Source of the DNA: Dehalococcoidia bacterium
Lineage (GTDB): Bacteria > Chloroflexota > Dehalococcoidia > UBA2979
DNA length: 64,000 nucleotides
Direction: 5' to 3'
Assembly (NCBI GenBank): GCA_965219085.1
Contig: OZ244720.1
Span: forward strand, 1,152,001-1,216,000
The position numbers and the translations under genes were made by a program. Below are positions 10,545 through 58,366 of this stretch, piece after piece; within the stretch, counting starts at the first letter, position 1, and each line of letters begins with the position of its first letter. The notes below the pieces were generated by a model that ran no database searches, had not been told where the DNA came from, and saw nothing but the letters and a program-made list of their open reading frames with translations.

Positions 10545-10583
10545 CCTTACGCCTCGATGCGCGACGGCCACCAGTTCCAGCGC
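10545..10583 (-). repeat. Orphan duplicate of the MMPL gene 3' end (partner 11415-11453)
   Basis: 36/39 identity; encodes RWNWWPSRIEA* versus RWNWWPSRIGA* in the gene. Confidence 0.9.
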
Positions 10584-10660
10584 GGGATCCGAGGACACCA
10601 GTGCCCTCGACTGCCGGACCGACTCAGGCCTTCCGGTGTGTCCACTCTCAAGGCCGGAAC

Positions 10661-10996
10661 CTAGCCTGTCTCGGGGTGCTCCTCATCCAGTGCTGCGATA
10701 CCCGTCAGTGCGATCGGCGGCCGGTCGGGGAATTCGGCCACCAGGCTGAGCTTCCCGCCCATCGCGCCGACGTAGCTGCTCAGCGTGGAGAGCAGCAGAT
10801 CGCTGCGCTGCTCGATACGCGAGACGTTTTCCTGATTGATTCCCAGCTTCGCGGCAACGCTCGCCTGCGTCTGCTCCCGTGCCTTGCGCAGGTCGCGAAG
10901 CGACATCTCTTCGGCGATGAGGTCCCGGGCGCGTTCCTCGATCCGCTGCCGACGCGACGGCGAGAGTCCGTCCAATCGCTCATCGAGGGTCGACAT
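10661..10996 (-). CDS. XRE/HTH antitoxin (HigA-like)
   Basis: LRDLRKAREQTQASVAAKLGINQENVSRIEQRSDLLLSTL HTH; downstream of a RelE-like toxin. Confidence 0.9.
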   Translation of the reverse strand: MSTLDERLDGLSPSRRQRIEERARDLIAEEMSLRDLRKAREQTQASVAAKLGINQENVSRIEQRSDLLLSTLSSYVGAMGGKLSLVAEFPDRPPIALTGIAALDEEHPETG

Positions 10997-10998
10997 GC

Positions 10999-11361
10999 CT
11001 ACCTCCTCACGCCGGGTAACTGGTCGAGATGCTCATCGAATCGTGCATCCGCCCTGCTGACCAGCCGGCTGTAGAAGCGACGCTCGTTCATGCCGCTCTT
11101 GTCGCCAGCCGCCAGCAGGATGGCACGCTGGCGAGGGTCGAACGCGAAGGCGACGCGCCAGACGCCTTGCGCTGCGCGAAAGCGAAGCTCCTTCATGTTG
11201 GCGTGGCGGGATCCGTTCAGCGTATCGACACGCGGGCGACCCAATGTCGGCCCGAACGTCTCAAGGAGCCTCGCCTGTGCAAGCAACTCATCCTGCACCG
11301 CGGTCGGCAGATCGTCGAATTCAGGGTCGAAGGCCCCGTGGAACTCGACTCCCCAAGCCAA
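10999..11361 (-). CDS. RelE/HigB-family toxin
   Basis: GPTLGRPRVDTLNGSRHANMKELR...WRVAFAFDPRQRAILLAAGDKSG. TTG start at 11361 chosen because the ATG at 11373 overlaps the predicted -10. Confidence 0.88.
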   Translation of the reverse strand: MAWGVEFHGAFDPEFDDLPTAVQDELLAQARLLETFGPTLGRPRVDTLNGSRHANMKELRFRAAQGVWRVAFAFDPRQRAILLAAGDKSGMNERRFYSRLVSRADARFDEHLDQLPGVRR

Positions 11362-11368
11362 CGGAGAC

Positions 11369-11405
11369 ATCATGACTTGTCAGTCATATGCTGTCAAGAG
11401 CATAT
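11369..11405 (-). promoter_or_regulatory. Sigma70-type promoter and palindromic operator of the higBA-like module
   Basis: Minus strand TTGACA (11397-11392)-N17-CATGAT (11374-11369); inverted repeat atatgct-N6-agcatat (11386-11405) overlaps the -35. Confidence 0.7.
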
Positions 11406-11416
11406 CTGCCTCGCCC

Positions 11417-13624
11417 TCACGCCCCGATCCGCGACGGCCACCAGTTCCAGCGCCCGAACATCGCCACGAGCGACGGCACGATCAACGTGCGCGTGATGAA
11501 GGTGTCCATCAGCACGCCGGCCGCCACCGCGAAGCCGAGCTGTAGCAGGTCCTGCAGCGGCAGCGTCATCAGCGCCGAAAACGTCCCGGCGAGGATGAGG
11601 CCGGCCGAGGTGATCACGGGGCCGGTGCGCGCGAGTGCGTACCGGGTCGCCTCGGCCAGCGGCGCCTCGCGCGCCTCCTCGCGGATGCGCGACATCAGGT
11701 AGATGTTGTAGTCGACGCTCAGCGCGTTGAGGAACACGAAGAGGAAGAATGGGACGCCCTGTCCCACTCCCGATTGACCCAGCACGACGACGAAGACCAC
11801 GACGGCGAGGCCGAGCGTCGCGAAGTACGTGAACGCGATCGTCGCCATCAGGTACAGCGGCACGATCAGCGAGCGCAGCAGCAGCGCCAGCACCACCCCG
11901 ATCGCGAGCAGGATCAGCGGCAGCACGACCCGCGAGTCGCGGTTGCCGGCCACCTTCGTGTCAAACGCCTCCGCGGTCTCGCCGCCGATGAGCACGCCGG
12001 CCGGGTCCAGCCCGGCCGCGGCCACGCTCGCGCGCGCAAGCTCGCGCAGCTCGGGGACGGCGTCGAGCGCCTCCGGCGCGTACGGGCTCACCCCGAGCAC
12101 GACGTCGATGCGCGCCTCGTCCCCGTCCTCGGAGACAAAGCCCGCCCGGGCTGCCTCGGCGGCAGGCCCGCTCGCGGACCCCGCCTCGATGCCGAAGGGA
12201 CGGCTGGGACCGGCGGCGCCGGCGACGAGGGGGTGTTCGGTCAGCGCGAGCGTGACCGCGTCGAGCTTCCCGAGCGCACCCTCGTCGAGGGCCTGTTCGC
12301 CGGGCGCGAGCGAGACGAAGACCCGCGTGCGCGCGAGTTCGCCGCCCGGGAAGCCCGTGCGCAGCAGCTCGAAGCTGCGCACCGACTCGGTGTTGTCGGG
12401 CAGGCTCTCGAGCCGGTCGTAGGTCGGCTGGTAGGCGAAGAGGCCGGCGATGAGCAGGGCAAGCACCGCGCTCGTCGCGGCGAGCACGGCGCGCGGCCGG
12501 CGCAGCACCACGCCGCCGATGCGGCCGTAGATGCTCTGGCGCCAGTCGGCGGGGGCGTCGGGCCCCTCGGCGAGGCGCGGCTGCACCGGCCAGAAGACGC
12601 GCCGCCCGATGATCGTCAGCACCGCCGGGATGAGCGTGAGCGCGGCGAGCATCATCAGCGCCACCGCCAGCGCGATGACCGGCCCGAGCGTCTGGTAGGA
12701 GCGCAGCACCGCGAACCACAATGCCGCGGACGCGACGAGGATCGTCGCGCCGGCCGAGGCGACGGCGCCGCCGACGCCGCGCATGGTGCGTCGCATCGCC
12801 TCGTGGCGGTCGGCGTTGCGGGTGAGCTCCTCGCGGAAGCGCGCCGAGACGAAGAGCACGTAGTCCGTCCCGGTGCCGAACAGCACGACGGTCATGATGC
12901 CCGTCGCCTGGCCGGAGATGGGCAGGTCGAACTGCTGCGCGATCCAGGCGGCGATGCCGCCGGCGAGCTGGAAGACGAGCCCCACCCCGAGCAGCGGGAT
13001 CGTGGCCATGATCGGCGATCGGTAGATGGCGATCAGCAGCGCGAGCACCAGCGCCACGGTGACGAGCAGCAGGAACGTGTCGATCTGCCGGAACACCCCG
13101 ACGATATCGACCACGAGCCCGCCCGGCCCGCCCACGGCGACCTCGACGCCGGGCAGGTCGAGCGCCGCCGTGCGTTCGCGGATCGCGTTCACCGTGTCCG
13201 CGAACGGGTCCTCGGCGGGCTCGCCCGAGAGCTCGACGAAGATGTAGAGGGTGGTGCGGTCGGGCGAGATGAGGCCGGGAATGGCGCCCGGCGCGCGCAC
13301 ATCGGTGATGTTGTGCGGCGCGTCGGGGCCCGTCATCCAGGCGACGAGGTCGTCGACCGCCGCGAGCGTGGGTGCGCCGAGTCCGGCGAGCTCGCGGAAG
13401 ACGATCAGCGTGGGCGTGCCCCGTGCCGGGAACTCGTCGCGGGCGAGCTCGTAGGCGAGGGTCGACTCGGCGTCACCGGGGAGGAACAGTGCCTCCTCGT
13501 TCTCGCGCACCTCGTCGAGGCGCGGGAGCTGCGAGAGCAGCACGCCGGCGGCAAGCACCCAGACGAGCAGCGTGACCCACTTGCCGCGTGGGCTGCTGAC
13601 GAAGTCGGTGACGACGCCCAGCAC
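11417..13624 (-). CDS. MMPL family (RND) transporter
   Basis: Two TM halves with GTGTDYVLFVSARFREE and SVDYNIYLMSRIREE; ends GRWNWWP. Confidence 0.93.
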   Translation of the reverse strand: MLGVVTDFVSSPRGKWVTLLVWVLAAGVLLSQLPRLDEVRENEEALFLPGDAESTLAYELARDEFPARGTPTLIVFRELAGLGAPTLAAVDDLVAWMTGPDAPHNITDVRAPGAIPGLISPDRTTLYIFVELSGEPAEDPFADTVNAIRERTAALDLPGVEVAVGGPGGLVVDIVGVFRQIDTFLLLVTVALVLALLIAIYRSPIMATIPLLGVGLVFQLAGGIAAWIAQQFDLPISGQATGIMTVVLFGTGTDYVLFVSARFREELTRNADRHEAMRRTMRGVGGAVASAGATILVASAALWFAVLRSYQTLGPVIALAVALMMLAALTLIPAVLTIIGRRVFWPVQPRLAEGPDAPADWRQSIYGRIGGVVLRRPRAVLAATSAVLALLIAGLFAYQPTYDRLESLPDNTESVRSFELLRTGFPGGELARTRVFVSLAPGEQALDEGALGKLDAVTLALTEHPLVAGAAGPSRPFGIEAGSASGPAAEAARAGFVSEDGDEARIDVVLGVSPYAPEALDAVPELRELARASVAAAGLDPAGVLIGGETAEAFDTKVAGNRDSRVVLPLILLAIGVVLALLLRSLIVPLYLMATIAFTYFATLGLAVVVFVVVLGQSGVGQGVPFFLFVFLNALSVDYNIYLMSRIREEAREAPLAEATRYALARTGPVITSAGLILAGTFSALMTLPLQDLLQLGFAVAAGVLMDTFITRTLIVPSLVAMFGRWNWWPSRIGA

Positions 13625-14418: not shown

Positions 14419-15042
14419 GTGGAGCCGCAGGAACGATTCCCGATCAGCCTCGGGGAGGCGATCTTCTCGCTGCGCGCCATCCGCCGCGTCAAGCCCGACC
14501 CCATCCCCGAGGAGGACCTGCGCGACATCCTCACCGCGGCCATCCAGGCGCCCAACGGAGGCAACGCCCAGCCCTGGCACTTCCTCGTCGTGCGCGACCC
14601 GGAGCTGCGCGCGCGCCTCGGCGCCCTCTACCACGAGGCGTGGTGGGCGAAGCGCGCCGACGAGGGCATCGGCGGCCCCGAGGACCTCCACCCCGCCAAC
14701 CAGGTGTCCGCCTCGGCGATGCGCCTCGCCGACGAGTTCGGCGAGGCGCCGGCCATCGTGCTGGTGTGCGCGATGGCGCAGGGGGCCGGGGCAATGGGCT
14801 CGGTCATCCCGTCGGTCGAAAACCTGCTCCTCGCCGCGCGAGGGCTCGGCGTAGGCGGCACGATCACGACGCTGCACGCCTCGGTCGACGAGCGCGTGAA
14901 GGCGCTGCTCGACATCCCGGCGGAGGTGCAGATCGTCTACGCGGTGCGGCTCGGCTACCCGCGGGGCCGCTTCGGGCCGGTCACCCGCAAGCCGCTGAAC
15001 GAGGTGACCTCGGGGGACCGCTGGGGCGATCCGCTCGCGTAG
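14419..15042 (+). CDS. Nitroreductase family protein
   Basis: AIFSLRAIRR..PDPIP...APNGGNAQPWHFLVV...NLLLAARGLGVG...LGYP. Confidence 0.92.
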   Translation: MEPQERFPISLGEAIFSLRAIRRVKPDPIPEEDLRDILTAAIQAPNGGNAQPWHFLVVRDPELRARLGALYHEAWWAKRADEGIGGPEDLHPANQVSASAMRLADEFGEAPAIVLVCAMAQGAGAMGSVIPSVENLLLAARGLGVGGTITTLHASVDERVKALLDIPAEVQIVYAVRLGYPRGRFGPVTRKPLNEVTSGDRWGDPLA

Positions 15043-15274
15043 CGAGCGAAACCGGCATGTCGACCCTTTGAGGCGCGGCGAGCCCGCGAGGGGCGCGCGA
15101 TCTCCGAACCCGGACCGCGCCGCATTCGCAGGGGCGCGGGTGCAAGGGCTAGTTAGTCGAGGCGTACCATCGGTGAGCGTTGCTGCTCAATCGCAGAACG
15201 GACAAGCCACCCTTGACGGATACGAGCTATCGTGGCACATGAGAAAGACAGAGCATCGCGAGAAGGGAACGGCC

Positions 15275-17280
15275 GTGCCGACGTACACGATTGATGACTT
15301 CTGGCGGCGGCGCCTCAAGAGTCGTGTTGAATACCCATCTGACAGATCGCCGGTAGCTGGGTGGTCCACCCAGACCGACGGGTTACCAACCTTCCAGGAG
15401 GCCCCCTTTCGCCGAGCGAAGAATTCGCTGATGACGCCGACCCGGAAAACAGCTCTATACTACTCGTCTCCGCCCCTGGTGCCGTTGGGAAGTCCACTCT
15501 CGCCCGCGAGATCGCGCATGCTACGGGCTCGATCTATATTGACCTTGCCGAGGCGGCACCGGTTGGCGCTCAAACCTTGACTGGTGGCCTCGCTAGATCA
15601 GGCCTTTTCGAAGCTTGGGAATCGGAGTCAGTCGCCGCACTGATTGATGGCTTAGATGAGGCCCGCCTGAAGGTAACCCACGAGGCCTTTCGGTCATTCC
15701 TCTCGGATATTGCGGAGCTCTCAGTTAGTCGGACGATACCAACGGTACTCTTCGGCAGAACGCGTGCGATCCAAGATGCGTGGCTTGAGCTAGCAGAAAG
15801 CGACATTGATGTGAGCATCTCGGTGCTGGAGATCGGCTATTTCGATCCGCAGTCATCTCTTGCTCTTGCCGTAAACAAACTGAATCCTAGCAGCCAGCAC
15901 ACGAGCGTGCAGACTGAGGTCATGGAGGTCATACTACAAACCCTAAGAAGGGAGACCAGTAGTGACGGCGATCGCTTTGCTGGATATGCGCCAGTAATCG
16001 AAGCCGTCGCTGCGCACGTCAACGATGAGGATAACCCTGGAGCGCTGCTTGCTAGAGTACGGCAGGGGGATCAACCCGTGTCGATGCAAGCCATTGTGTC
16101 AGCAATTCTGGACAGAGATCACCGTAAGTTACGCGCCATTGAGTTCAAGGATAAAACGTTATCCGAGAGGCTGTACACTCCAGATGAGCAACTCGACCGC
16201 CTCGTCTCGGAGGCATACGGGGCTCCGCCTCCGGAAATGCCGGACATGGATCCGGAGGATGCTCAGAGGTATGAGGGCCTATTGGAGGAGTGGGTAAATG
16301 ATCACCCATTCCGCGATGCCTCAGCAACAGTATTTGACGCTGTAATTTCCACCAGAGGGTTGCAAAGCACTGCGGCGAGTGGTGCAGCGCTGAATAGGGA
16401 ACTAGGCAGGTCAGTAGCAAACCCGTTTCTGTCGGAGTTCTACGCGCTGGGATCCGACCTAATTCAGCCTGAGCATGTAGGTGTCTTCTATGCGTCGGTG
16501 AGAGCTAGGCTCGCGCTCGGAGACTCTGCCAGTCTATACCTAGGAACGGACGAGGAGTCGCGCTCGCTCACGGAGATGGAGATAACCATCACACGGCGAG
16601 ATACCAGTGAGCCTCGAATATTGAGACTGCAGACTGAGGAATCTGGCACGATCATTTTGGGCAGTCAAGTCGAAGATATTCACCTAGCTGTGCCTTGGGC
16701 GAGGGTTACGATCGGCGCAGAGCCAGAGGCCACCTTAGTTGCGCCAGTTATTATTCAGTGCAATGAGCTCTTCATGCCAGCGCCTAAACTAATCATAGAG
16801 GCCCCCGATGGTCGCCATGATAACGCGGTTCTTCTAGAGGCACAAGAATACCTTGGTCGGACGTCGCAAGTGCCCGTTATTCGAGGAGATGTCAGCTTAT
16901 CCGCCTCTTGGCCAGGAGTCGCTACGTATCCTTGGACTGCGTTCGCCATCAACCCGACGAGCGCGGGCGATGAAGATCCGGAACTCGATGAAGCCCTGAG
17001 GCGATTCCGTAATTTCGTGATTCAATTCCGGTCTAACAGGTACGGGGGACTGGCTCGGTACCAAGGGACGATCGACAATACTAGGATGACTAAGGGGCCT
17101 GGGCGAGCCGTTCTGCGCCACATGGAGGAAACGGGGATACTGACTCGCCAGCAGCCAATGTATTTCTTAGACCCCCAACGCTTGTCTGAATTGACTGGTA
17201 CATCCTACGCTGATTGTATGGCTCGTAGATTCGGCGAGAAGGCTGTTTCATTCGTCAGGGAGGCAATGTCGAGCGGCTAG
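15275..17280 (+). CDS. P-loop NTPase (STAND/NACHT-like), probable 1-nt frameshift near 15405; candidate defence gene
   Basis: Walker A SAPGAVGKST, Walker B ALIDGLDE; visibly more AT-rich than the flanks. An upstream-frame N-terminus from GTG 15275 (AAGGGA RBS) joins the 15361-17280 frame if one C is added to the C5 run. Confidence 0.75.
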
Positions 17281-17290
17281 GATTCGAGCC

Positions 17291-17408
17291 GGTGCAAATC
17301 GTCTACGCGGTGCGGCTCGGCTACCCGCGGGGCCGCTTCGGGCCGGTCACCCGCAAGCCGCTGAACGAGGTGACCTCGGGGGACCGCTGGGGCAGCCCGC
17401 TCGCGTAG
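17291..17408 (+). repeat. Orphan duplicate of the nitroreductase 3' end (partner 14925-15042)
   Basis: 118 bp with 4 mismatches, includes the stop codon (…DRWGSPLA* versus DRWGDPLA*). Confidence 0.95.
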
Positions 17409-17525: not shown

Positions 17526-20500
17526 ATGCTGAAGCACGTCCTCGCAGGCGCGTTGCTGCTGATGGCCGCCGTCATGGCGGCCGGCGGCGGCGAGTTCGCG
17601 CGCGGGCCACTGGCCGCCGGGGACGCCGAGGGCAACGTCGCGCTCGCCCAGGGCGGCGCAGGCGCGGACGGCGACGCGGTCACCGTCGAGCTCCGCGTCT
17701 GGCAGCTCGTGACCAACGCCGACGTGCTCTACGTCAGCGCCCGCCCCCAGGGCGGCAGCTGGCGCACGCTCGGCACGATCGAGTTCCCGCTCGACGATGG
17801 CCACAGCGCCGACGGCAGCCGCCGCTACGGCCAGCTCACCGTCGGCGACATCGAGCTCCGCGTCTGGCAGGGCGTTGGCGACCCGCTGTCGATCTCGATC
17901 ACGGCGCGCCACGTGGACGGCGAGTGGTTCTCGCTCGGCGCGCTGGCGCTCGACGACGGCGTGAGCAGCGGCGGGCACTATCGCTACGGCGACCTCACGA
18001 TCGTGTCGTCCGCGGATCCGGGCGTCGCGTTCACGCCCAGCGGCGCGGACATCCCGCGCCTCGCGACCGCGACGATCACGTTCCTCAACCCGCCCCTGGT
18101 CACCGACGCGGCGCGCCTCGTCGCCATCGACCCGCCGATCGAGGGCTCCTTCGCCTGGGACGGCGACCGCACGCTGCTGTTCCAGCCGGCGTTCCCCGGC
18201 TGGCAGCGCGGCCAGCGGTACCTCGTGCGGGTCGACGGGCCGGCCGCCGGCCTCGCGCGCGACTACACGCACGCCTTCACCGTCGAGGGCGGACTCGAGG
18301 TGGCCTACGTCATCCCCGGTGACGGGGACGTCGAGGTGCCCGTCGAGGCGCAGATCCTCGTGCAGTTCAACCGCTCCGTCGCGGCGCTGACCGTGCTGCA
18401 GGAGGGCGCGGCGCCGCCCGTGCTCGAGTTCGACCCGCCGCTCGCCGGGAAGGGCGAGTGGCTCAACACCTCGCTCTACCGTTTCATCCCAAGCGACCTA
18501 CAGCCCGCCACCGCGTACCGCGTGCGTATCCCGGCCGGGCTGACCTCGGCCGCCGACGGCGTGCTCGAGTCCGACATCACGTGGAGCTTCGAGACGATCC
18601 AGCCGGTGGTCGCGAGCTTCGAGCCGGCCAACGACACGAAGTGGGTAGAGCCTGACGCGCCAGTGGTGGTCACGTTCAACCAGCCGATGGACCGCGCCTC
18701 GGCGGAGGCGCGGGTGGCGCTGCGCGCCGCGGACGGCACGCCCGTCGCGGCGACGTTCGAGTGGAGCGAGGGCGACACGGTCGCGACGCTCGCGCCGGAA
18801 GCACTGCTGACGCTCGGCGGGTTGTACGAGCTCGTCGTGCCGGCCGGCGTGGAGGGCGCCGCCGGCGGCGCGACCAGAACCGTGCGGCTCACGCGCTTCA
18901 CAGTCGCTGAGACGCCGGGACTGGTGTCGTGGTCGAGATCATTCAGCGCGCGTCACATGTGGATGAGCCTCACCTACAACAACCCGATGGATCCCGATTC
19001 GTTCGAGGGTCGCGTCACCGTCAGTGGTGTCGACCCGGACGACATCAGGATCGACTGGAGCGACCGGCGACCAGAGCGCGTCCGCCTGGACTTCCCGGCG
19101 GAACACGAGACGACGTACACGGTGCGTATCGCGCCAGGCGTGCAGGACCGCGGGGGGCGAGCGACAACCGCGGTACAGACATCGACCTTCACCACTGAGA
19201 AGGAGTGGCTCTTCCCGGAGCTGACCCTCGCCGCTCCCGCGAGCTTCGTGACCTACGCGGCAAACAACGAACAGGTCCTCTACTTCGATGCCCAGAAGAT
19301 CGAGGAGGCACAGTTCTCGCTCCACCGCCTCTCCGACGCGGAAGCTGAGTTGCTCCTGCGCCGGGGCGCCATCGATAGAGGGACGGGTTTCTGGCCGGAT
19401 AGCGATCCGATACGCACTTGGACCGAGCCGATCGCGGAGGAGCTGCGCGACACGTCCAGGGTCTACTCGACGACGCTGGGTGACGGCGAGCCGCTGGCGA
19501 AGGGCCACTACTTCCTCTTCGCGACGTTCGACGAGGCATCGGAGTGGAAGCAGACCAAGCTGGTGGTAAGCGTCGTCGACACGGCGATCGTCACCAAGCT
19601 GGCCTCCGACGAGCTCGTGGTGTGGGCGCTCGACTACGAGTCGGGAACCCCGCTCGTTGAGGCTCCGGTCACCACGGCTCCTCTGGAGTCGCCACCCACA
19701 ACCCCCTACCAGGCCGGGAACACGGACGCGCAGGGCGTTGCCCGGTTCGCGGTCACCCCGCCGGAGACCGTCTCCTACTGGACCCGCTACGGGGACCATG
19801 TGGTGCGGATGGAGGAGGGTGGACGCTTCGGTGTCGCATCTACGTGGTGGGACATGGGCGCTGACCCGTGGGACCTCGGCGCGTCCTCGTACATCCCGGA
19901 GCCAGTCGGCCACCTGTACACCGACCGCCCGATCTATCGCCCCGGTGAGACCGTCTCCTTCAAGGGGGTGCTCCGCGACGAGGACGACGCGTCCTACTCC
20001 GTACCCGGGCCCGGCACAGAGGTCACGATCTCGATCCGGGACTCTCGTTACAACTGGATCCACGAGACCACGACCGAGCTGGACGAGCTGGGCACGGTTT
20101 CCGGTGAGGTGGCGCTGGCCGCCAACGCGCCGACAGGCCGGTACCGGGTGTGGCTCGTCGGGTCTGCGGGCGGCCGCGTGACCACGTCCTTCACCGTCGC
20201 GGAGTTCCGCGTGCCGGAGTTCCTGGTGGAAGTCGAGGCGGGCGCTGCGGAGTACGTGTCCAGAGACAACATCGACACGGAGGCGCGCGCCGACTTCTAC
20301 TTCGGTGGAGCCGTCAGGGATGCCGCCGTCACCTGGGCGGCGCGCTCCTCGCCGACGACGATTCGCGTCGAAGGCTACGAGGACTACTCGTTCTCCGAGT
20401 ACGACTACTACGCCCGCACTCGCACCTCCGGCGATCCGATACGCTCCGAGGGCGAGGCGCGCACGGACGACTCAGGCATCGCGCGCTTCGAAGTGCCGGC

Positions 20501-48501: not shown

Positions 48502-48516
48502 CGGGACGAGGCAGTC

Positions 48517-50649: not shown

Positions 50650-50852
50650 GGGGCCCGACCAGCGGCCAGAGGTTCTCTGGCAGACTGGTTCTGGACCCTG
50701 CCAGCCGGTGAGCTCTCAGCTGATCCCTGCGGCTTCTGGACCGCTTCACGAAGACCGAGCCCCTGCTGGTATTCCGGGTTGTTCTGCAGCACTCATGGGG
50801 TGTCGTGCCATCGAGCACTGATCCATTAGGCCGTCGCAGGAACCAACCCGCC
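50650..50852 (+). ncRNA. Predicted bridge RNA (5' stem-loop, target-binding loop, donor-binding loop)
   Basis: Target guides tgatccct (50721-50728) and cacgaag (50747-50753); donor guides ggggtgtc (50797-50804) and ccattag (50823-50829); each pair flanks an internal hairpin inside an outer stem. RNA ends approximate. Confidence 0.82.
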
Positions 50853-50896
50853 GGGTCGCACCGAGCAGCGCGAAGCGGGAGAGGAACTGAAACACG

Positions 50897-52120
50897 ATGG
50901 CCTTGTACCTGGGCGATGACTGGTCCGAAGACCACCACGACGTCCATCTCATGAACGACGCGGGCGAGCGGCTCGCCGCCCGGCGTCTGCCCGAAGGGGT
51001 GGAGGGCATCACTGCCCTGCACGGACTGGTCGCCGGGTACGCCTCAGGGCCGGGTGAGGTGATCGTCGGCATCGAGACGGACCGCGGCCCCTGGGTCGCG
51101 GCACTGCTCGCGGCCGGCTACCACGTCTACGCCATCAACCCGCGCTCGGCGTCGCGTTACCGCGACCGCCACCACGTCGGCGGCGCCAAGTCCGACGCCG
51201 GCGACGCGAAGCTGCTCGCCGACCTCGTCCGCACCGACCGGCACAACCACCGGGAGGTCGCCGGCGACAGCGACGAAGCCGCCGCGGTGCGCATCCTCGC
51301 CCGCGCCCACCAGCAGTTGATCTGGGACCGCGTCCGCCAGACCAACCGGCTGCGCAACGCGCTCAGGGAGTACTTTCCGGGTGCGCTGGAGGCCTTCCCC
51401 GACCTCGCGCACGACGACGCGGTGGGCGTGCTGGCGACAGCGCCTGGCCCGCGCGAGGCGGCGCGGCTGAGCATCACCCAGATCCGCTCCGCGCTGCGCC
51501 GCGGCGGCCGCCGGCGCAACATCGAGCGGCGCGCCGCCGAGGTCCGCGACGCGCTGCGCTCACCGCAGCTCGAGGCTCCGCCCGCGGTGAGCAAGGCATT
51601 CGCCGCGAGCACCAGTGCGGCAATGAGGGTGATCGGCGAGATCAACCGTCAGATCAAGGAGCTCGAGGCCGAGCTCGCGAGCCATTTTGAGCAGCACCCG
51701 GACGCCGGTATCTACCGTTCCCTGCCCGGTCTCGGCGTGGTCCTCGGCGCCCGGGTGCTTGGCGAGTTCGGGGATGACCCCGAACGCTACGAGTCGGCGA
51801 AGTCCCGCAGGAACTACGCCGGCACGTCGCCGCTGACGGTAGCATCCGGCCGCAAGCACACCGTGAAAGCCCGCTTCGTCCGCAACCGGCGCCTCTACGA
51901 CGCAGTCGACCAGTGGGCGCTGTGCTCCCTGCAGGCCAGCCCCGGCTGCCGCGAGTTCTACGATCGGCGGCGCGCCGCGGGCGACCTCCACCACCAGGCG
52001 CTCCGCGCCCTCGGCAACCGTCTCGTCGGCTACCTACATGGCTGCCTGAAGCGCCGCTTGCCCTACGACGAGACGACCGCCTGGGGACACCGTTACACCC
52101 ACGAGGACCTCGCTGCTTGA
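50897..52120 (+). CDS. IS110-family recombinase/transposase
   Basis: DEDD residues in LGDDWSE, GIET, KSDAGDA; SLPGLG; YAGTSPLTVASGR. Confidence 0.95.
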   Translation: MALYLGDDWSEDHHDVHLMNDAGERLAARRLPEGVEGITALHGLVAGYASGPGEVIVGIETDRGPWVAALLAAGYHVYAINPRSASRYRDRHHVGGAKSDAGDAKLLADLVRTDRHNHREVAGDSDEAAAVRILARAHQQLIWDRVRQTNRLRNALREYFPGALEAFPDLAHDDAVGVLATAPGPREAARLSITQIRSALRRGGRRRNIERRAAEVRDALRSPQLEAPPAVSKAFAASTSAAMRVIGEINRQIKELEAELASHFEQHPDAGIYRSLPGLGVVLGARVLGEFGDDPERYESAKSRRNYAGTSPLTVASGRKHTVKARFVRNRRLYDAVDQWALCSLQASPGCREFYDRRRAAGDLHHQALRALGNRLVGYLHGCLKRRLPYDETTAWGHRYTHEDLAA

Positions 52121-52299
52121 CCCCTTAGCGTCCTGGGGGTGTCTTCGTGTACAGCCGCGCCTCCGGGTCCGTGCCGGAACTATGCGTATCGCGGCTGCGC
52201 CGCCGCCCGCGGAAGTCGACATCCGGGTTGCGTCCGCCCAGGGGTGGCTCCTGCTCGTCGCGCGGGCGGTAGCTTCTATGAGGGACGGTCTTTCTGCAA

Positions 52300-52600
52300 G
52301 GCCGACGTGGCGGCCTCCTCCTCGGGGCGTGGCGCTCCTCGACATCGGGGCCGATCCGCTCGTGATGTCCCCTGACGGAGCCTGTGCCGAGCTTCTATCC
52401 GCACTCTTTGATGGGCCACGTATCGGGCCCGGTGCATGAAGGCACATCCTGCTTCCAGGGGGCGCTGCCAACTCTTGAACGTCCTTGTTGGACCGCTACC
52501 GCCTCGCAGTCGCCCGTTGCCCGGCATCACGTGCAGTGGTTGGTTTGCTGGGCCTCCTCCCAGGTCCGTCTCAGTCTCGCTCTCCTGGTCGGTTGCTTCG
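52300..52600 (-). ncRNA. Predicted bridge/seek RNA of the IS1111-group element
   Basis: RNA-sense ggcgguagc (52503-52495) + hairpin gucc-aacaa-ggac + ucaagag (52478-52472) match the two halves of the insertion site; auagaag (52398-52392) is complementary to the donor junction. RNA ends approximate. Confidence 0.8.
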
Positions 52601-52613
52601 GCGCCGCGCCTTG

Positions 52614-53702
52614 CTACGCGGCCTCCTGCGCCGCGGCGTCGCGCAACGGCTCGTAGACCTCGCCGGTCTTCCACAGCGCGAGCAGCAGCACCGCCAGCCG
52701 CCTCGCGACGCCCACGACGGCGCGCTTCTTCGCGTTACCGGCCCCCGTAGCGGTGTAGCGCTCACCCCAGCGGCGCAGGTCGGTGTCGGGCCCGAAGGGG
52801 CCGAGGATGTAGTGCGCGGCCTGCACCAGCAGCCGCCGCAGGTGCGGATCGCCGCTCTTGCCGATGCCGAGTTGCGGCGTGCGCTCGCCCGAGTCGCGCT
52901 GCCTCGGCACGAGCCCGAGGTAGGCGCCGACCTCGCGGTTCTTCGGGAAGCGCCCAGGATCCTCGATCGTCAGCACGAACGTGAGCGCGGTGATCGGCCC
53001 GACGCCCGTGACCTGGCGCAGCGCCGCGGTCTCGGAGTGAGCCTCGCACAACGCCTCGATCTCGCGGCCGGCCGCCGCGATGCGCGCGGTCAGCTCGCCG
53101 ATCGCCTCCACCAGCGGCAGCAGCGCCGGGCGCAGCCCGTCGGGGATGTGGTCCGCCGTCTTGCGGTGGAACGCCTCGGCCGTGCACGACGGCAACGCGG
53201 CTCCGCAGGCCTTGACGGCCCCGCGCACGTGGTTGATGAGCAGCGTCCGCGAGCGCACCAGCGCGTCGCGGGCGCGCACCACGGCGAGGTCGTGCTGGCT
53301 CGCCTCGCTGCGGTGGCGGATCGGGGCGAGCAACTGGGGGTCGAAGCGCCCCAGCCGCGCCAGCCACTCGGCGTCGAGCCGGTCGGTCTTGCGCTGGCTG
53401 CGGGCGATCAGCGCGACCTGGCGCGGGTTGGCGACGACCACCTCGTGGCCGAGGTCCGCCATGAGGCGGCTCAGCCACGGCGAGCGCGGCCCCGCCTCGA
53501 TCACGACCCGCGATGGGGGGAGGCCGGTCAGCACCATGCCCAGCGCTGCCGTCGTGGTGCGGACGCGCCTCTCACGTACCACCTCCCCGCCGGCGCCGAG
53601 GGCGTGGACGTGGGTGTAGCGGTCGCCCACGTCGAGGCCGATGGTGACCCCTGACCCTTCCTTGCCCTCAATGCTCCACGTCGTTGCGGTATCCTGCTGC
53701 AC
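52614..53702 (-). CDS. IS110/IS1111-family recombinase/transposase
   Basis: IGLDVG, VIEAG, VANPRQV, KTDRLDA, GVGPITA, YLGLVPRQRDSG, ARRLAVLL. Confidence 0.95.
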   Translation of the reverse strand: MQQDTATTWSIEGKEGSGVTIGLDVGDRYTHVHALGAGGEVVRERRVRTTTAALGMVLTGLPPSRVVIEAGPRSPWLSRLMADLGHEVVVANPRQVALIARSQRKTDRLDAEWLARLGRFDPQLLAPIRHRSEASQHDLAVVRARDALVRSRTLLINHVRGAVKACGAALPSCTAEAFHRKTADHIPDGLRPALLPLVEAIGELTARIAAAGREIEALCEAHSETAALRQVTGVGPITALTFVLTIEDPGRFPKNREVGAYLGLVPRQRDSGERTPQLGIGKSGDPHLRRLLVQAAHYILGPFGPDTDLRRWGERYTATGAGNAKKRAVVGVARRLAVLLLALWKTGEVYEPLRDAAAQEAA

Positions 53703-54516
53703 GGCCGGTCTCCTACCTCGTCAAAGCTCCGCAAAGAGCCGTTCTGGCCCATCGAGGCCGCTGTTTCGGGGGCGAGTATCCCCCTTGAGGAAGAGACCGG
53801 CCCTCATGCCATCTCTTGAGCGACGCCCACGCCTCGAGCAGCGTCCCGTCCACCGTGAAGTGCTCGGCCGAGAGCAGCCGGCGGCGCTTTGCCTCGGCCA
53901 CCACCTCGGCGAAGAAGGCGCGCGCGACATCGGCTGCGAGCAGGCGCTCGCGGTTCTTGGAGAAGCTCGAGGCGTCGAACGGCGCGTCTGAGATGTTGAG
54001 GTCCAAGAACCACTTGAAGAGCAGGTCGTAGCGCAGCCGCTCGCTGAACTGGCGCTCGCTGCGGATCGAGTAGAGCGCGATCAGCAGGCTCGCCTTGAGC
54101 AGGTGCTCGGGCGGGATCGAGGGCCGCCCGCTCGTTGCGTACATCGTGCCGAAGAGCGGCGAGAGCCGCTGCAGCGCTGCATCGACGATCGGCTTGATGC
54201 GTCGGATCGGGTGGTCGTCCGGGATGAAGGAGTCCGGCGTCACCGCCAGCAACATGTTGGTCTGACGCTCAGCGTCGCCTCGCACGGGGCTGCCTCCCAG
54301 GCTACGCCCCCGCCGCCTTCGCTATCCTGCCAGATGGCCGCGCCTTTTTCAGCACCCTGCTAGGCTCCCCACCTGGGGCCGAACGCAAGAATCGGGGAGC
54401 CGCCGCGGCGGCTCCCCGGCGTCACCTCCGTGGCGCGGCCGAGGGCGATCCGGGTGGCGACGCAGCCCCACCCGAGCGCAAAGACGACTACCAGCCGTAA
54501 TCGGAGAGTGATTCTT

Positions 54517-54672
54517 ACAGGCTGTAGCACGTGCTTATAGGGTATACATACAGGCCATAGCACGTGCTTCCGAGCGTCGACCGACTGGTTGTCCCCCTCG
54601 GTCTGAGCCCCTATAGCGGACGCGACAGGCTGTAGCACGTGCTTATAGCGTGATATACACGTTGTAGCCTGT
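54517..54672. repeat. Three copies of acaggc(tg/ca)tagcacgtgctt plus an inverted partial copy; probable operators
   Basis: 54517-54540 and 54625-54648 identical (24 bp), 54550-54569 variant; each contains the palindrome agcacgtgct. Confidence 0.8.
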
Positions 54673-54683: not shown

Positions 54684-55154
54684 ATGCCTTCCTCGAACGC
54701 GCACGCACGATCACGGCTCGATGCCCGTTTGAGCCTGCTTCGGCCGCTCAGCCGGGAGCCGCTTCCGCACGCCGGGTGGATCCGGGCGATCCGCCAGGCA
54801 CTCGGCATGTCCGGCAGGGAGTTGGGAGACCGGTTGGGAGTCAGTCAGCAGACCATCCCCAACATCGAGCGCAGCGAACAACGCGGCGCCATCAAGCTGG
54901 AGACGTTGCGACGCGCCGCTGACGCTCTCGACTGCGATCTCGTGTACGCGCTCGTGCCCCGCCGCAGTCTGGATGAGCTCGTCATGGCGCAGGCCCGCCG
55001 CAAGGCGACCGATCACCTCCGGCCGATAGCGCACCACAGCCGACTCGATGATCAGGCGGTCACCGGCACGGATGCCGCGGCCCAGATCGACGAACTCGCG
55101 GCTCACTTCGTCGATCGCAGGGGCCTCTGGACCGAGTCGACAGCGCCGCGATAG
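54684..55154 (+). CDS. Mobile mystery protein A-like HTH protein
   Basis: GWIRAIRQALGMSGRELGDRLGVSQQ...IERSE...LETLRRAADALDCDLVYALVPR. Confidence 0.88.
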   Translation: MPSSNAHARSRLDARLSLLRPLSREPLPHAGWIRAIRQALGMSGRELGDRLGVSQQTIPNIERSEQRGAIKLETLRRAADALDCDLVYALVPRRSLDELVMAQARRKATDHLRPIAHHSRLDDQAVTGTDAAAQIDELAAHFVDRRGLWTESTAPR

Positions 55155-55586
55155 CCCGCGCGGCTCCTCGACGACAAGTACCTGCGCGATCTGCACGCTG
55201 CCATGTTCGGCGACGTCTGGAACTGGGCGGGCCGCTATCGGACTCTCGAAACCAACATCGGCGTCGCTCCGCACCGGATCGCAGCGGACATCCGGCTCAT
55301 GGTCGGAGACACCCGAGCGTGGGTGGAACACGACACGTACGGTTCCGACGAGCTGGCGGTGAGGTTCCACCACCGTCTCGTCGAGATTCATCCGTTCGCG
55401 AACGGCAACGGACGCCTCGGTCGAGTCGCCGCCAACTACCTGATCCGGGGTCTCGGAGCCGAAGCCTTCAGCTGGGGAGCCCGCGCCGACCTCGAGACCG
55501 ACGCGCTCCGGGGCGCCTATCGCCGCGCGCTTCAGCGCGCGGATGCCGGCGAGATCGCCGAGCTGCTGGCGTTCGCGCGCACCTGA
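55155..55586 (+). pseudogene. Mobile mystery protein B-like Fic protein, apparently 5'-truncated
   Basis: LRDLHAAMFGDVWNWAGRYR..ETNIGV...HHRLVEIHPFANGNGRLGR; no start for the usual N-terminal part; in frame with the upstream TAG. Confidence 0.75.
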
Positions 55587-55601
55587 TCCCGCCCCTCGGC
55601 C

Positions 55602-55640
55602 GCCCGCTCAGGGCGCCGAGGGGTCATACGCGTCGGCGAT
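55602..55640 (-). repeat. Orphan duplicate of the CoA-transferase 3' end (partner 55844-55882)
   Basis: 33/39 identity; encodes IADAYDPSAP* versus IGDTYEPSVP*. Confidence 0.85.
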
Positions 55641-55676
55641 CGTCGGAGGGCTACACTGGATGGGTGGAGGCGACCC

Positions 55677-55844
55677 TTGCCACCGTGCCAAGAGACCGAG
55701 CAACGCCCACCACAGCCGTTCACCCTCGAATCGGTGTACGGGTCCGTGCAGCCCTCTGCGGCTCCGGAGGACTCCGACCAGTTGGTGCGTGACGCCAAGG
55801 ACGCGAAGGCCGAGCGAACCGTGCGGGAGCTGCGCGAGTCGTAG
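55677..55844 (+). CDS. 55-aa small protein resembling the C-terminal half of AbrB/MazE-type antitoxins
   Basis: GGAGG RBS, TTG start; PFTLESVYGSVQP...EDSDQLVRDAKDAKAERTV; below the ORF-track length cutoff. Confidence 0.45.
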   Translation: MPPCQETEQRPPQPFTLESVYGSVQPSAAPEDSDQLVRDAKDAKAERTVRELRES

Positions 55845-55849
55845 CCCGC

Positions 55850-58366
55850 TCAGGGCACCGAAGGCTCGTACGTGTCGCCGATGTGCCCGAGTTCCTCGAA
55901 CCGCCGGTACTCCGCGTCGCTGAAGCCCAGCAACTCCCTGTAGACGTACTCGTTGTCCTCACCCAGCAGCGGCGCGTGGCGCGGCGCGAACTCCGGGATG
56001 GCGCTGCCGCTCCATGAGCGGCCGACGTGGCGGTACGTGTCCGTCTCCGGGTGCGGGACCTCGTGGAGGAAGCCGCGCGCCTGGTGGTGCGGATCCTCGT
56101 ACACGTCCGCCTCGGTCATCACCGGCGCGGCCGGCACGCCGACGCGCTGCAGGCGGTGCGCGATCCAGTAGCGGTCACGCGGCGAGGTCCACTCGCTGAC
56201 GATCGCATCGAGCTCCGCGCGGTTCGCGAGCCGCGCGGCCATGTCGGCAAAGCGCGGGTCCTCGATGAGGTCCTCGCGGCGCATCGACTCGCACAGCCGC
56301 CGCCACTCCTCCTCGCTGCGCACGGCGATGGCGACCCAGCGGTCGAGGCCCTGGCACGGGTAGGCGTTGTGCGGCGCCATCCACACGTCGTTGTTGCCCA
56401 TCTGCTCCCAGGTGCGGCCATTCATCGAATAGTCGAGCACGAACTCGCCGATCAGCGGGACGAAGTTCTCCGTCGTCGCCTGCTCGATCAGCAGGCCGTG
56501 GCCGGTGCGGTCCCGGTAGCGCAGCCCCATCGTGAACGAGAAGGCCGCGCCGGCCCCGCCCGCCGCGTCGGAGGGCACCCCGAGCGGGACGTACTCGAGG
56601 CTGAGCCCGGGGTAGGAGCGGATGGCGGGGTGGCCGGAGAACGCCTCCATGTGCATGCCCATGCTGCGCAGGTTGCGGTACGGCCCCTGCAGGCCGTAGC
56701 CGGGCATGCGCAGCATGACGAAGCGGGGGTTGATCGCCGACAGCCGCTCCCAGTTGACGTCCAGACGCTCGATGTTCTGCGGCAGGTTGTTCTCAATCAG
56801 CCCGTCCGAGACCGCGACGAGGCGCTCGAACACCTCCTGCCCCTCGGGCCGGGAGAGGTCGATCGTCATCGAGAGCTTGTTGCGGGAGTGGTGGTTGAAG
56901 GCGGACGAGCGATTCCACGGCCGCTCGCCGGCGTCGGCGTCGGGGTAGCCGAGGCCGGCCGTGCTCAGCATCTGGGCAGTCACGATCTCCGGCGAGGGGC
57001 GCGCCATCAGCCCGCGCGTCGCGTTGGCGAAGTGCTGCAGCGACTCGACGCGGATCACCTCGGCGCCCCACTCCGCGAGGTGCATCGTCGAGTAGGGCCC
57101 GGCGAGCACCACGGTGAAGTCGAGGATGCGCACGCCCTCGAGCGGGAGCCGCCCCGTGGCGCCTGCGGGCGGCACGGTCGGCGCCTCGCGAGGCGCCGGA
57201 GCGGGCTCGCCGAGCACCTCGGCGGTGTGCTCGCCGAGCAGGGGGGCGCGGCGTCGCGGCGGCATCGGCTCGTCGGGCCGGTACAGCGTCGCCGAGTAGC
57301 CGGGGTAGGCGAGGGGTCCCGTCTCCGGGTGGTCGATCTCCTGGAAGAAGCCACGATGGCGGAAGTTGGCGTCCTCGAGCATGTCGGCGACGGTGTTGAT
57401 CGGCCCGCCGAGCACGCCGTGCTCGATGCACGCCTCGGTGATCTCGGCCTTGGTGTGCGAGATCATCCACGGGATCAGGTACTGGTTGAACTGGTCGATG
57501 CGCTCCGGCTGCGCACGTGACTCGATGGTCGCCCACTCCGGCTGCTCCAGCAGCTCGGGCTGCTCGATCATGCGGATGACGCCTTCGAGGCGCACCGGCC
57601 CGCCGCTCAGCATGTAGAAGCCGTCGCCGCACGGGAACGTGCCGCTTCCCACCGCCGATGCCAGCGGCGGGCGCGTGCCGTAGCTGCCCGTGTACTGGTA
57701 CATCATCAGCCGCGCCAGCCGCAGGTCGATCGAGTGCGTGGCCGTCTCGAGGAGCGAGAGGTCGACGTGCTGGCCCTCGTCGCCGGCCTCGGCGGCGCGC
57801 AGCGCGAGCGACGTGGCGAGCGCGCCGACGATGCCGCCGTGGAAGAGCGTCATGTGGCCGGCGTTCTTGAGGGGCTCGTGGTCGACATCGCCCGAGGCGA
57901 TCATCGGGCCGCCCATCGCGTAGAGCGTGAGGTCGGTGACCTGGTAGTCGCGGTACGGCCCGTCCTGTCCGAAGTTCGTCATCGACGTCAGCACGACGCG
58001 CGGGTTCACTTCGCGCAGCGCCTCGTAGCCGAGGCCGAGCCGCTCCATCGTGCCCGGCGGGAAGCTCTCGACCACGGCGTCTGCGCCGGCGACGAGGCCG
58101 AGCAGCCGCTCGCGGTCCTCGGAGCGCTCGAGGTCGAGCACGACGCTGCGCTTGTTGGTGTTGAGGAACAGGAACACGGCCGAGCGCTCGGGGCCGGGCA
58201 CGTCCTGGTGGAACGGGGGCTGCATCCGCGCCGGGTCGCCTCCGGGCGGCTCGATCTTGATCACGTCGGCGCCGTAGTCGCCGAGCAGGCGGGTGGCGAA
58301 CGGGCCGGCCTCACCCTGCGTCAGGTCGATAATGGTCACGTCGTCGAGCGGCATCACGTCGGGCAT
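55850..58366 (-). CDS. Family III CoA-transferase, two fused CaiB/BaiF domains
   Basis: PLDDVTIIDL..AGP..GADVIKIE..NTNKRS and PLEGVRILDF..AGP..GAEVIRVE..RNKLS; APLLGE twice; GGAGG RBS. Confidence 0.93.
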   Translation of the reverse strand: MPDVMPLDDVTIIDLTQGEAGPFATRLLGDYGADVIKIEPPGGDPARMQPPFHQDVPGPERSAVFLFLNTNKRSVVLDLERSEDRERLLGLVAGADAVVESFPPGTMERLGLGYEALREVNPRVVLTSMTNFGQDGPYRDYQVTDLTLYAMGGPMIASGDVDHEPLKNAGHMTLFHGGIVGALATSLALRAAEAGDEGQHVDLSLLETATHSIDLRLARLMMYQYTGSYGTRPPLASAVGSGTFPCGDGFYMLSGGPVRLEGVIRMIEQPELLEQPEWATIESRAQPERIDQFNQYLIPWMISHTKAEITEACIEHGVLGGPINTVADMLEDANFRHRGFFQEIDHPETGPLAYPGYSATLYRPDEPMPPRRRAPLLGEHTAEVLGEPAPAPREAPTVPPAGATGRLPLEGVRILDFTVVLAGPYSTMHLAEWGAEVIRVESLQHFANATRGLMARPSPEIVTAQMLSTAGLGYPDADAGERPWNRSSAFNHHSRNKLSMTIDLSRPEGQEVFERLVAVSDGLIENNLPQNIERLDVNWERLSAINPRFVMLRMPGYGLQGPYRNLRSMGMHMEAFSGHPAIRSYPGLSLEYVPLGVPSDAAGGAGAAFSFTMGLRYRDRTGHGLLIEQATTENFVPLIGEFVLDYSMNGRTWEQMGNNDVWMAPHNAYPCQGLDRWVAIAVRSEEEWRRLCESMRREDLIEDPRFADMAARLANRAELDAIVSEWTSPRDRYWIAHRLQRVGVPAAPVMTEADVYEDPHHQARGFLHEVPHPETDTYRHVGRSWSGSAIPEFAPRHAPLLGEDNEYVYRELLGFSDAEYRRFEELGHIGDTYEPSVP

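Follow-up and report, generated by a model that had tools for sequence, protein, structure and literature searches.

Small gene cassettes bracketed by imperfect direct repeats of neighbouring gene ends in a Dehalococcoidia genome

Five small gene cassettes, each bracketed by an imperfect direct repeat of the end of a neighbouring gene, were confirmed in a 64-kb stretch of a Dehalococcoidia bacterium genome (contig OZ244720.1 of assembly GCA_965219085.1, positions 1,152,001 to 1,216,000). This stretch, with a G+C content of 69%, is referred to below as the window and its positions are counted from its first base. The original prediction described the five pairs and proposed that the lineage repeatedly acquires toxin and defence cassettes from its relatives, either by recombination anchored in gene ends or through a trans-acting system, and this interpretation was partly supported. 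At one site, where an NTPase segment is absent from two relatives, the two repeat copies resemble alleles of one gene end derived from closely related genomes.

Results

Five repeat pairs at gene ends

The repeat pairs were established by self-blastn, repeat search and inspection of the alignments, and all five of the predicted pairs were found. They are formed by the 3' end of an MMPL gene around a HigBA toxin-antitoxin (TA) pair (case 1; 10545-10583 and 11415-11453, 39 bp, 36/39 identical), the 3' end of a nitroreductase gene around an NTPase gene (case 2; 14925-15042 and 17291-17408, 118 bp, 114/118 identical), the stop regions of an SDR and an MFS gene around a DUF433 gene (case 3; 30464-30485 and 31133-31154, 22 bp, 21/22 identical), the 5' end of an MmeI-like gene around an EEP-family gene (case 4; 33444-33516 and 34331-34403, 73 bp, 67/73 identical, extending to 103 nt at 83%) and the 3' end of a CoA-transferase gene around a small open reading frame (ORF) (case 5; 55602-55640 and 55844-55882, 39 bp, 33/39 identical). 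The identities thus range from 85 to 97%; the EEP repeat, which had been given as 69 bp, measured 73 bp (up to 103 nt). Each of the five repeats is present in two copies in the window. The cassettes of cases 1 to 5 are 831, 2248, 647, 814 and 203 bp long with G+C contents of 0.64, 0.565, 0.649, 0.672 and 0.675, respectively, as compared to 0.69 for the window.

An excess of repeats over chance at short spacing had been named as a test of the pattern. Direct pairs spaced 100-3000 bp apart and scoring at least 37 bits, the score of the weakest of the five pairs, numbered 15. Only 3 direct pairs were more widely spaced, although some ten times more pair space was available to them, from which a chance expectation of about 0.3 near pairs follows. 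Five of the 15 are the cassette-flanking repeats, and the other 10 represent tandem paralogues, repeats within two genes, a decayed copy of a 3' gene end and operator-like repeats. By score alone the 22-bp pair of case 3 is at chance level, and a 22-bp pair of equal score was found inside the large alpha-2-macroglobulin (A2M) gene of the window; both case 3 copies fall exactly on the stop codons of the convergent SDR and MFS genes and bound the cassette between them. No local match between two of the five repeats was longer than 8 nt, which agrees with the prediction that the repeats lack mutual similarity and are local sequence and not copies of a common att site.

Genes were identified with Pfam, NCBIfam and PADLOC. 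Integrase or resolvase domains were found in none of the 66 ORFs scanned, and none of the six transposase ORFs falls within the five modules, so that the modules are free of both kinds of enzyme, as predicted. No 8-mer or 9-mer was common to the cargo ends of three or more of the five cases, no terminal inverted repeats were found at the cargo ends (best scores of left end against reversed right end 5.5-12), and the window holds no tRNA or tmRNA gene.

For comparison with relatives, eight loci from Chloroflexi/Dehalococcoidia metagenome-assembled genomes (MAGs), with a total of 178,225 nt, were collected using the A2M gene as query (L001 to L008). The best of these, L001, has an A2M protein with 72% amino acid identity and is syntenic with the window between the MMPL and SDR genes, with nucleotide identities of 80-85%. 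Its alignment with the window ends at 11680 and at about 29856, so that the MMPL 3' end and case 3 are outside its reach. The relatives therefore cover case 2 directly, and case 4 was compared indirectly, through homologous proteins.

The host genes are uninterrupted by the cassettes in all five cases. As checked against homologues, the MMPL protein aligns to L001 from residue 1, the CoA-transferase is as long as its homologues and the N-terminus of the MmeI-like enzyme matches more than 100 homologues, in line with the expectation that the host gene stays intact at each site. The 3' orphans were said to keep frame and stop with several silent or conservative changes; frame and stop are indeed kept, as worked out by hand, and the 3, 4 and 6 differences are too few to show selection.

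An empty site and two allele-like copies at the nitroreductase gene

The nitroreductase gene identified by Pfam (14419-15042, plus strand) is the true, complete gene, and its last 118 nt including the stop codon make up copy A of case 2 (14925-15042). Copy A is followed by a native downstream stretch of about 36 nt (15043-15078), recognized by its match to L002, and then by the cargo (15079-17290), which has a low G+C content of 0.54-0.60 from about position 15200. The cargo encodes, on the plus strand, a 639-aa AAA_16/STAND-like NTPase (15361-17280; weak Pfam AAA_16 match). Copy B, an orphan nitroreductase end with its stop codon (17291-17408, plus strand), leads into native intergenic DNA and then the A2M gene (17526-23912). 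L001 and L002 pass from the nitroreductase stop codon straight into the DNA that is found after copy B. The search for empty alleles in related MAGs thus gave two, and since the site is empty in L001 and L002 the 2.2-kb NTPase segment is an insertion.

Both copies could be aligned with the single copy of L001 and L002. They differ from each other at 4 of 118 positions, and each differs from the two relatives at 12-15 positions; they share at least 8 states that are not found in L001 and L002. Given that the differences between A and B are far fewer than those to the relatives, both copies come from this lineage. The four differences consist of one synonymous third-position change and one whole codon, which is GAT in copy A and AGC in copy B, and the same codon is AGC in L002 and GAG in L001. 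Assuming that the copies were identical at insertion and then acquired independent substitutions, the probability that three of the four changes fill one codon is p = 5.7×10−4, and when one named codon is required in addition it is p = 2×10−5.

The DNA beyond the copies adds a second difference. For about 36 nt beyond copy A the sequence corresponds, at equal offset, to the native sequence downstream of the gene in L002 (18/24, p = 0.00025), and this stretch is missing after copy B. When a composite of the A side and the downstream DNA of copy B was aligned with L002, the score had a sharp optimum, being 32.5 with 36 nt taken from the A side and 14.5 with 0 nt. The site thus reads as gene end, 36 native nt, foreign DNA, the second gene end and what remains of the native spacer. 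The offset junction together with the allelic differences suggested that case 2 is neither a clean target duplication nor an attL/attR pair.

If the copies are alleles, the donor fragment would have extended from 118 nt before the stop codon, through the 36-nt stretch and the cargo, to 10 nt past the NTPase stop codon. Simple Campbell integration into a recipient that had the 36-nt stretch was rejected, because it predicts the stretch after copy B and the opposite was observed; a Campbell-type model works solely if the recipient allele was without the stretch. A junction microhomology of 5-6 nt is possible in case 2 from the alignment, and none was established at the other sites.

Neither the NTPase nor the EEP protein of case 4 matched the PADLOC defence library, and NCBIfam gave nothing useful for them. 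The NTPase retrieved solely unnamed or NACHT/STAND-type look-alikes from the protein atlas, and a tblastn search of plasmids, made as a check for defence functions, returned 3 records of 24-27% identity, all hypothetical or unannotated.

Duplicated 3' ends of the MMPL and CoA-transferase genes

Case 1 lies on the minus strand. The resident copy (11415-11453) is the true 3' end of the MMPL gene (11417-13624; Pfam and alignment), and the orphan (10545-10583) corresponds to its last 12 codons and stop codon, from which it differs by a TGA to TAA change, one synonymous change and one Gly to Glu replacement. A convergent fn3/cadherin-like gene (7775-10543) ends one base short of the start of the orphan. 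The cargo between the copies (10584-11414) encodes a HigB-like toxin (10999-11373; Pfam Gp49, E = 2.9×10−20) and an antitoxin matching Pfam helix-turn-helix (HTH) families (10661-10996), and a palindrome is present directly upstream of higB.

The CoA-transferase gene of case 5 (55850-58444, minus strand; Pfam; 838 aa in the database version) ends in the resident copy (55844-55882), and the orphan (55602-55640, minus strand), equivalent to its last 10 codons and stop codon, lies 16 nt past the stop codon of a Fic/'mobile mystery protein B' gene. Between them the cargo (55641-55843) has a 55-aa ORF on the plus strand (55677-55844). It belongs to a small-protein family with 52 representatives at E ≤ 1×10−3, one of which (P0362) is also 55 aa long and 89% identical, and the family carries the C-terminal motif of MazE/PrlF-type antitoxins. 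Since longer members have a MazE/PrlF antitoxin domain before the shared motif, the cargo of case 5 is antitoxin-derived. The orphan tail was compared with the first 60 homologues, of which 58 were in frame (all except P0045 and P0058); it keeps the majority Asp and has Ala for an invariant Gly and Ala for Val/Ile. These residues are ambiguous between drift and a foreign allele.

The HTH/Fic pair next to this site (54684-55586) corresponds to 'mobile mystery protein A/B' (TIGR02612 and TIGR02613). Of the 186 positions of its model the Fic protein covers only 61-186, and it may be truncated or frameshifted. Upstream of the pair there is a perfect 24-bp direct repeat with a third, partial copy (54517-54540, 54549-54569 and 54625-54648).

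Stop codons of the SDR and MFS genes

The two 22-bp copies of case 3 lie across the stop codons of the SDR gene (29593-30471, plus strand; copy A, 30464-30485) and the MFS gene (31151-32452, minus strand; copy B, 31133-31154), both genes being assigned by Pfam. The cargo in between (30486-31132) is read on the minus strand. It had been described as a DUF433/DUF5615 pair, and the DUF433 gene was readily identified (30770-31090; Pfam E = 1.1×10−21). Its partner (30468-30801, minus strand) is spread over three frames and reads through copy A. The DUF5615 assignment was not upheld: the 153-aa ORF and two of the three frame fragments had no match, one 35-aa piece matched at E = 0.25, and the protein atlas gave nothing at 0.9 or higher. 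With the label depending on E = 0.25, the partner was treated as a broken, tentatively identified gene.

Duplicated 5' end of the MmeI-like gene

The host of case 4 is an MmeI-like type IIG enzyme (34393-37347, plus strand; PADLOC REase_MTase_IIG, E = 1.6×10−281), and here a 5' end is duplicated. Copy B (34331-34433, plus strand) is the upstream region and 5' end of the intact gene. The orphan copy A (33444-33546, plus strand) holds the 62 nt upstream, the ribosome-binding site and the first 14 or so codons, with the start codon changed from GTG to GCG. A hand count on the alignment gave 94% identity between the copies for the 62 upstream nt and 68% for the coding part. The cargo is a gene for a 262-aa EEP-family nuclease/phosphatase (33558-34346, plus strand), whose true start is the ATG at 33558, preceded by a ribosome-binding site, and whose stop codon (34344-34346) is inside copy B. 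This arrangement fits a role of both copies as expression signals. A promoter scan found no sigma-70-type site in the repeats, and a duplication of the promoter would therefore be deduced from position only, that is from the 62 upstream nt and the ribosome-binding site. The orphan N-terminus was also tried as an allele marker and rejected, given that it agrees with MmeI homologues at 7-8 of 13 residues with no class favoured (hand count).

Most EEP homologues are 240-242 aa long and the protein of the window has a tail about 20 aa longer, which makes the extra tail a product of the junction. The tail also contains a 15-nt tandem duplication (about 34285-34330) encoding five residues that the two closest EEP homologues lack. 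In two EEP proteins of 86-87% identity, which were paired with close MmeI homologues by the equal size of their contigs, the C-terminus is the tail that copy B encodes in the window. P0123, whose MmeI N-terminal region is 93% identical, is predicted to be fused from EEP through copy-B-like sequence into the MmeI-like protein. The junction between EEP, repeat and MmeI is thus found in at least three other assemblies and is an old one. The predicted in-frame fusion P0123 is 907 aa long with an end that looks out of frame, and it may be real or reflect a sequencing or assembly difference. For six of the nine closest MmeI homologues no close EEP protein was found on a contig of equal length among the 120 listed EEP matches, which suggests empty case 4 alleles in those genomes. 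A further EEP protein (85% identical) has an N-terminal extension weakly similar to the first 34 positions of a short-chain dehydrogenase model (E = 0.015), which hints that this cassette may elsewhere be located behind the 5' fragment of another gene.

The same pattern in relatives

The eight relative loci were scanned for repeat pairs in the same way as the window, and the pattern recurred at two sites, in support of the original interpretation. At one, a 40-bp duplicate of the 3' end of the gene for 6-pyruvoyl-tetrahydropterin synthase (PTPS) flanks one Uma2-family nuclease gene in L004 (90% identity; Uma2 gene at 19285-19881) and L005 (87.5%; 19384-19971), and the same module with a weaker repeat occurs at the corresponding locus of L008. 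The Uma2 gene has a mosaic structure: about 85 nt at its start and about 60 nt at its end are near-identical in the three MAGs, and the central 480 nt or so are only 52-66% identical between L004 and the others. Given that the ends and flanks are 94-100% identical, the content of the slot has been partly exchanged.

At the other site, a 34-bp duplicate (34/34) of the end of a ThiS-family gene surrounds 1253 bp with a glyoxalase gene in L004, and L005 has an empty site. The final 327 nt of the L004 insert repeat, at 95% identity, a segment that lies 1.25 kb farther downstream, so that the order reads gene end, cargo 1 and downstream flank, followed again by gene end, cargo 2 and downstream flank. 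Judged from this order, the arrangement is best described as a head-to-tail join of two putative alleles of one slot, an outcome that an att-site mechanism would be unable to give. No recombinase was detected among the 14 ORFs scanned at these two sites, and no larger version of any cassette was seen in the eight loci.

The toxin and defence character attributed to the cargo was upheld for the TA-type genes; the NTPase and EEP genes, which lack a defence-library match, and the glyoxalase gene of the one relative do not conform to it.

A duplicated gene end is also present in the window with no cassette. Beginning 22 nt beyond the end of the SBP_bac_5 gene at 48501 there is a degenerate copy of roughly the final 650-780 nt of that gene (both within window 47737-49174). 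The copy is 75-84% identical with several frameshifts and a 131-nt deletion, keeps a stop codon and ends 14 nt before an alpha/beta-hydrolase gene. Gene-end duplication therefore occurs in this lineage without a cassette.

Mobile and accessory DNA in the window

Accessory DNA is abundant in the window, including IS5-type copies and fragments, several TA pairs and tandem paralogues. The IS5-type element, with three copies or fragments, served as an internal control: the copies at 28076-29375 and 50023-54363 are 93-98% identical, in opposite orientation, have inverted termini and are flanked by 4-bp target duplications (TTAG and CTAG). The former is absent from L001, and a 93% identical copy is present in L008; the latter is split by two IS110-family elements (transposases at 50897-52120 and 52614-53702). 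The sole Rfam match in the window, Ms_AS-4, an actinobacterial sRNA (51721-51802, minus strand, 63.9 bits), lies antisense within the first IS110-family transposase gene.

An AF2212-like antitoxin and PIN toxin locus (32484-33403) is 92% identical in DNA to L003 2033-2948, where it has another gene context, as compared to just 68% protein identity between the A2M proteins of the window and L003; no flanking repeat was seen at its sharp homology borders. Tandem genes for Rv0623-like (VapB-type) antitoxins followed by a 71-aa PIN fragment occupy window 27238-28089 and L001 13035-13905, an arrangement that must be older than the split of the two genomes since both have it. A stretch of low G+C content (0.61-0.64) between the CoA-transferase gene and an SDR gene (58445-60560), in which no flanking repeat was detected, may be another inserted block; its two ORFs on the minus strand (58474-59367 and 59364-60227) had no Pfam, NCBIfam or PADLOC match. 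Periodic repeats of 6, 12 and 18 nt occur at 41024-41257 inside a beta-lactamase-family ORF (40750-42363, minus strand), with similar ones in L003, L006 and L007, and two adjacent small DUF2283 genes (39227-39887) are located between methyltransferase and flavin reductase genes.

Discussion

How the cassettes may have been inserted

The reading we prefer, and to which we give an even chance, is host-driven insertion-duplication or homology-facilitated recombination between alleles of one locus. The incoming DNA would come from a close relative and carry the end of the same gene with the DNA that neighbours it there. Its joining to the resident locus would involve a single homologous exchange within the gene end plus a single illegitimate junction formed by end joining, either as a circularised fragment that integrates Campbell-style or by linear homology-facilitated illegitimate recombination, two routes that are not distinguishable here. 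The product would be the gene with copy 1, the cassette and copy 2, in which the gene is completed by one of the copies and the other is left over as an orphan. Subsequently the module would be inherited, spread by flank homology and decay, and could in principle pop out between its repeats. The route of recombination, the form of the intermediate (circular or linear) and the donors are inferred.

Recombination between alleles explains the whole host gene, the local repeats of variable length, the allele-like copies and the lack of a recombinase, as well as the native flank travelling with one copy and the second duplicated flank in L004. A donor allele with the 36-nt stretch and a recipient allele without it would give the exact junction of case 2. 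The predicted gene-end-anchored recombination with relatives is strengthened at case 2 by the codon and the 36-nt offset. The trans-acting system offered as its alternative found no counterpart, given that there is no common motif, no terminal inverted repeat and no clean att-type junction.

Several points weigh against recombination between alleles. Evidence of the allele type comes from one of five cases and consists of one codon and an 18/24 match, and one multi-nucleotide mutation followed by a later deletion of 31-36 nt could mimic it. The orphan of case 5 has two residues that occur in none of the 58 in-frame tails, which drift would fit equally well. Homologies of 22 and 39 bp are short for a RecA-type exchange, the donor genome is hypothetical, and every version needs one unexplained illegitimate joint. 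Some modules are moreover old and inherited, so that their density in the window may reflect accumulation and not a high rate. The claim of repeated acquisition is qualified accordingly, as not all of the events are recent: the EEP junction is shared with at least three other genomes, and the Uma2 insert is common to three MAGs.

Copies of local sequence bracketing cassettes could also be explained by a true long target duplication, in which both copies would be derived from the resident and then drift. Foreign DNA would be ligated into a widely staggered break, the single strands of the target being filled in on either side, or would be copied in as a break is repaired. This is the literature's own name for the pattern, and double-strand breakage is proposed there as a trigger; several of the cargos are nucleases (EEP, Uma2, PIN-like). 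The case 2 states shared against L001 and L002 are also in its favour, and the case 5 residues unseen in homologues are as expected under drift. We nevertheless regard a literal duplication as unlikely, given that the whole-codon difference in case 2 equals the codon of L002, that the 36 native nt follow copy A alone and that two different flanks are duplicated around one insert in L004; separation of a 118-bp duplex of 70% G+C would also be physically improbable. A DNA transposon was rejected, as the repeats are 22-118 bp long and the modules have neither inverted termini nor a transposase. Quite unlikely in our view are remnants of site-specific elements that lost their integrase, or non-autonomous elements resembling cis-mobilizable elements (CIMEs) moved in trans. 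The topology is like that of attL/attR, with the gene restored and an orphan on the far side, and the cassettes are small, lower in G+C and in part decayed (the frameshifted partner in case 3, the antitoxin fragment in case 5). Such remnants are contradicted by the lack of an integrase in the five modules or among the ORFs scanned at the two sites in relatives, by repeats of 22-118 bp with scattered mismatches, by the junction displaced by about 36 nt in case 2 and by the duplicated second flank of 327 bp in L004. Since the five repeats have no common core, five different recombinases would be required.

The two-allele evidence would be the same if a larger insertion had come first and had then been partially replaced by DNA from a cargo-free relative, with one illegitimate end. 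Erosion of an island, or repair of the gene, in this way could have trimmed the cargo to its tight borders: the NTPase stop codon is 10 nt from copy B, the EEP and small-ORF stop codons are in or on copy B, and the broken partner in case 3 runs through copy A. However, it takes two events per site, and the eight loci hold no larger cassette; we consider it very unlikely. Chance matches or artefacts of assembling a strain mixture are hardly credible. The 22-bp pair is at chance score and the assembly is of the metagenome type, but the near pairs exceed the chance expectation (15 against about 0.3), the copies lie exactly on gene termini, the proteins of the window are recorded on a contig of 3,305,961 bp, three other assemblies have the EEP-MmeI junction too, and the Uma2 module is present in three MAGs.

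Significance

A bolder extension of recombination between alleles is that a sequence-independent host pathway, such as end-joining circularisation and exchange on 20-120 bp, or a nuclease cargo (EEP, Uma2) cutting at gene borders like a homing enzyme, makes the ends of genes reusable insertion slots. This is a long shot. If true, it would amount to an integron-like cassette system without integrase or common attachment site, and would account for the unsolved 'long target duplication' insertions across bacteria. If rare illegitimate events have merely accumulated in a plastic region, the window is an ordinary, if tidy, example of them.

How selfish and defence cassettes arrive without mobility genes has been an open question since the first description in Helicobacter. 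The two-allele evidence at one site favours recombination between relatives over literal target duplication, and the density is unusually high, at five modules in 45 kb, with two more sites in 178 kb of relatives. Many close relatives are present in public assemblies (MmeI-like N-terminal regions are 73-93% identical in more than 100 clusters, and the CoA-transferase belongs to a 47-member cluster), so a site-by-site reconstruction of donor and recipient alleles is probably feasible and would open a long-standing descriptive category to mechanistic tests.

Comparison with known systems

Homology-facilitated illegitimate recombination and Campbell-type insertion-duplication have one homologous and one illegitimate junction and a homologous anchor on which foreign DNA from a relative enters, and their experimental products are reported mostly to delete, not duplicate, recipient DNA. 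The case 2 copies resemble such products in that they appear to stem from different parents, as judged from the L002 codon and the downstream indel. Site-specific integrative elements at gene 3' ends, and CIMEs, restore the gene with an element-borne copy and have direct repeats on both sides; the modules described here differ in having no integrase, no common repeat core and no clean att junction. Orphan effector-immunity arrays of type VI secretion systems, contact-dependent inhibition systems and Rhs proteins grow by recombination in a conserved gene segment, which adds modules and displaces orphans downstream. Those arrays belong to one specialised family with toxic tips, whereas the hosts here are unrelated housekeeping or transport genes. 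Insertion with long target duplication is reportedly the subject of earlier work by Nobusato et al. (2000, Gene 259:99).

The original prediction did not mention that the pattern had been published before; Furuta, Abe & Kobayashi (2010, PMC2853133) call it 'insertion with long target duplication'. According to that paper, restriction-modification (RM) units with duplications of 46-423 bp, no mobility genes and some duplications over gene 3' ends occur in several phyla (Proteobacteria, Thermus, cyanobacteria and an actinobacterium), and its screen was for inserts below 20 kb with no mobility genes, a flanking repeat above 30 bp and an empty related genome. The likeness extends to small units without mobility genes, to long, variable and imperfect repeats of local sequence and often to a lower G+C content. 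As measured by that screen, the inserts are 203-2248 bp long with no integrase or transposase domain, the repeats of cases 1, 2, 4 and 5 exceed 30 bp and that of case 3 (22 bp) does not, and empty genomes are available for case 2 (L001 and L002) and for the L004 glyoxalase insert (L005). The cargo differs from that of the screen, consisting of TA-type genes, an NTPase, an EEP gene and a mini-ORF, and the MmeI-like enzyme is a host and not a cargo. The phylum, Chloroflexota, differs as well, and one repeat is a gene 5' end with its upstream region. Unlike in a literal target duplication, the case 2 copies look allelic and the junction is offset. At the level of titles and abstract openings, no report of long target duplication in Chloroflexi or with TA cargo was found among the papers listed, and absence from the literature is not claimed.

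The H47 island of Escherichia coli has extensive imperfect direct repeats and no recombinase gene, and neither its excision nor its integration requires RecA or any of 16 site-specific recombinases, host functions being credited (Azpiroz et al. 2011, PMC3191183; Azpiroz & Lavina 2017, PMC5426353). The modules of the window likewise combine imperfect repeats with the lack of a recombinase gene. H47 is 13 kb in size and its mobility was shown experimentally, whereas the modules are 0.2-2.2 kb, have gene ends as repeats and are known from their sequence. New in comparison with these systems are the phylum, the types of cargo, the 5'-end case, the density and the hint of two alleles.

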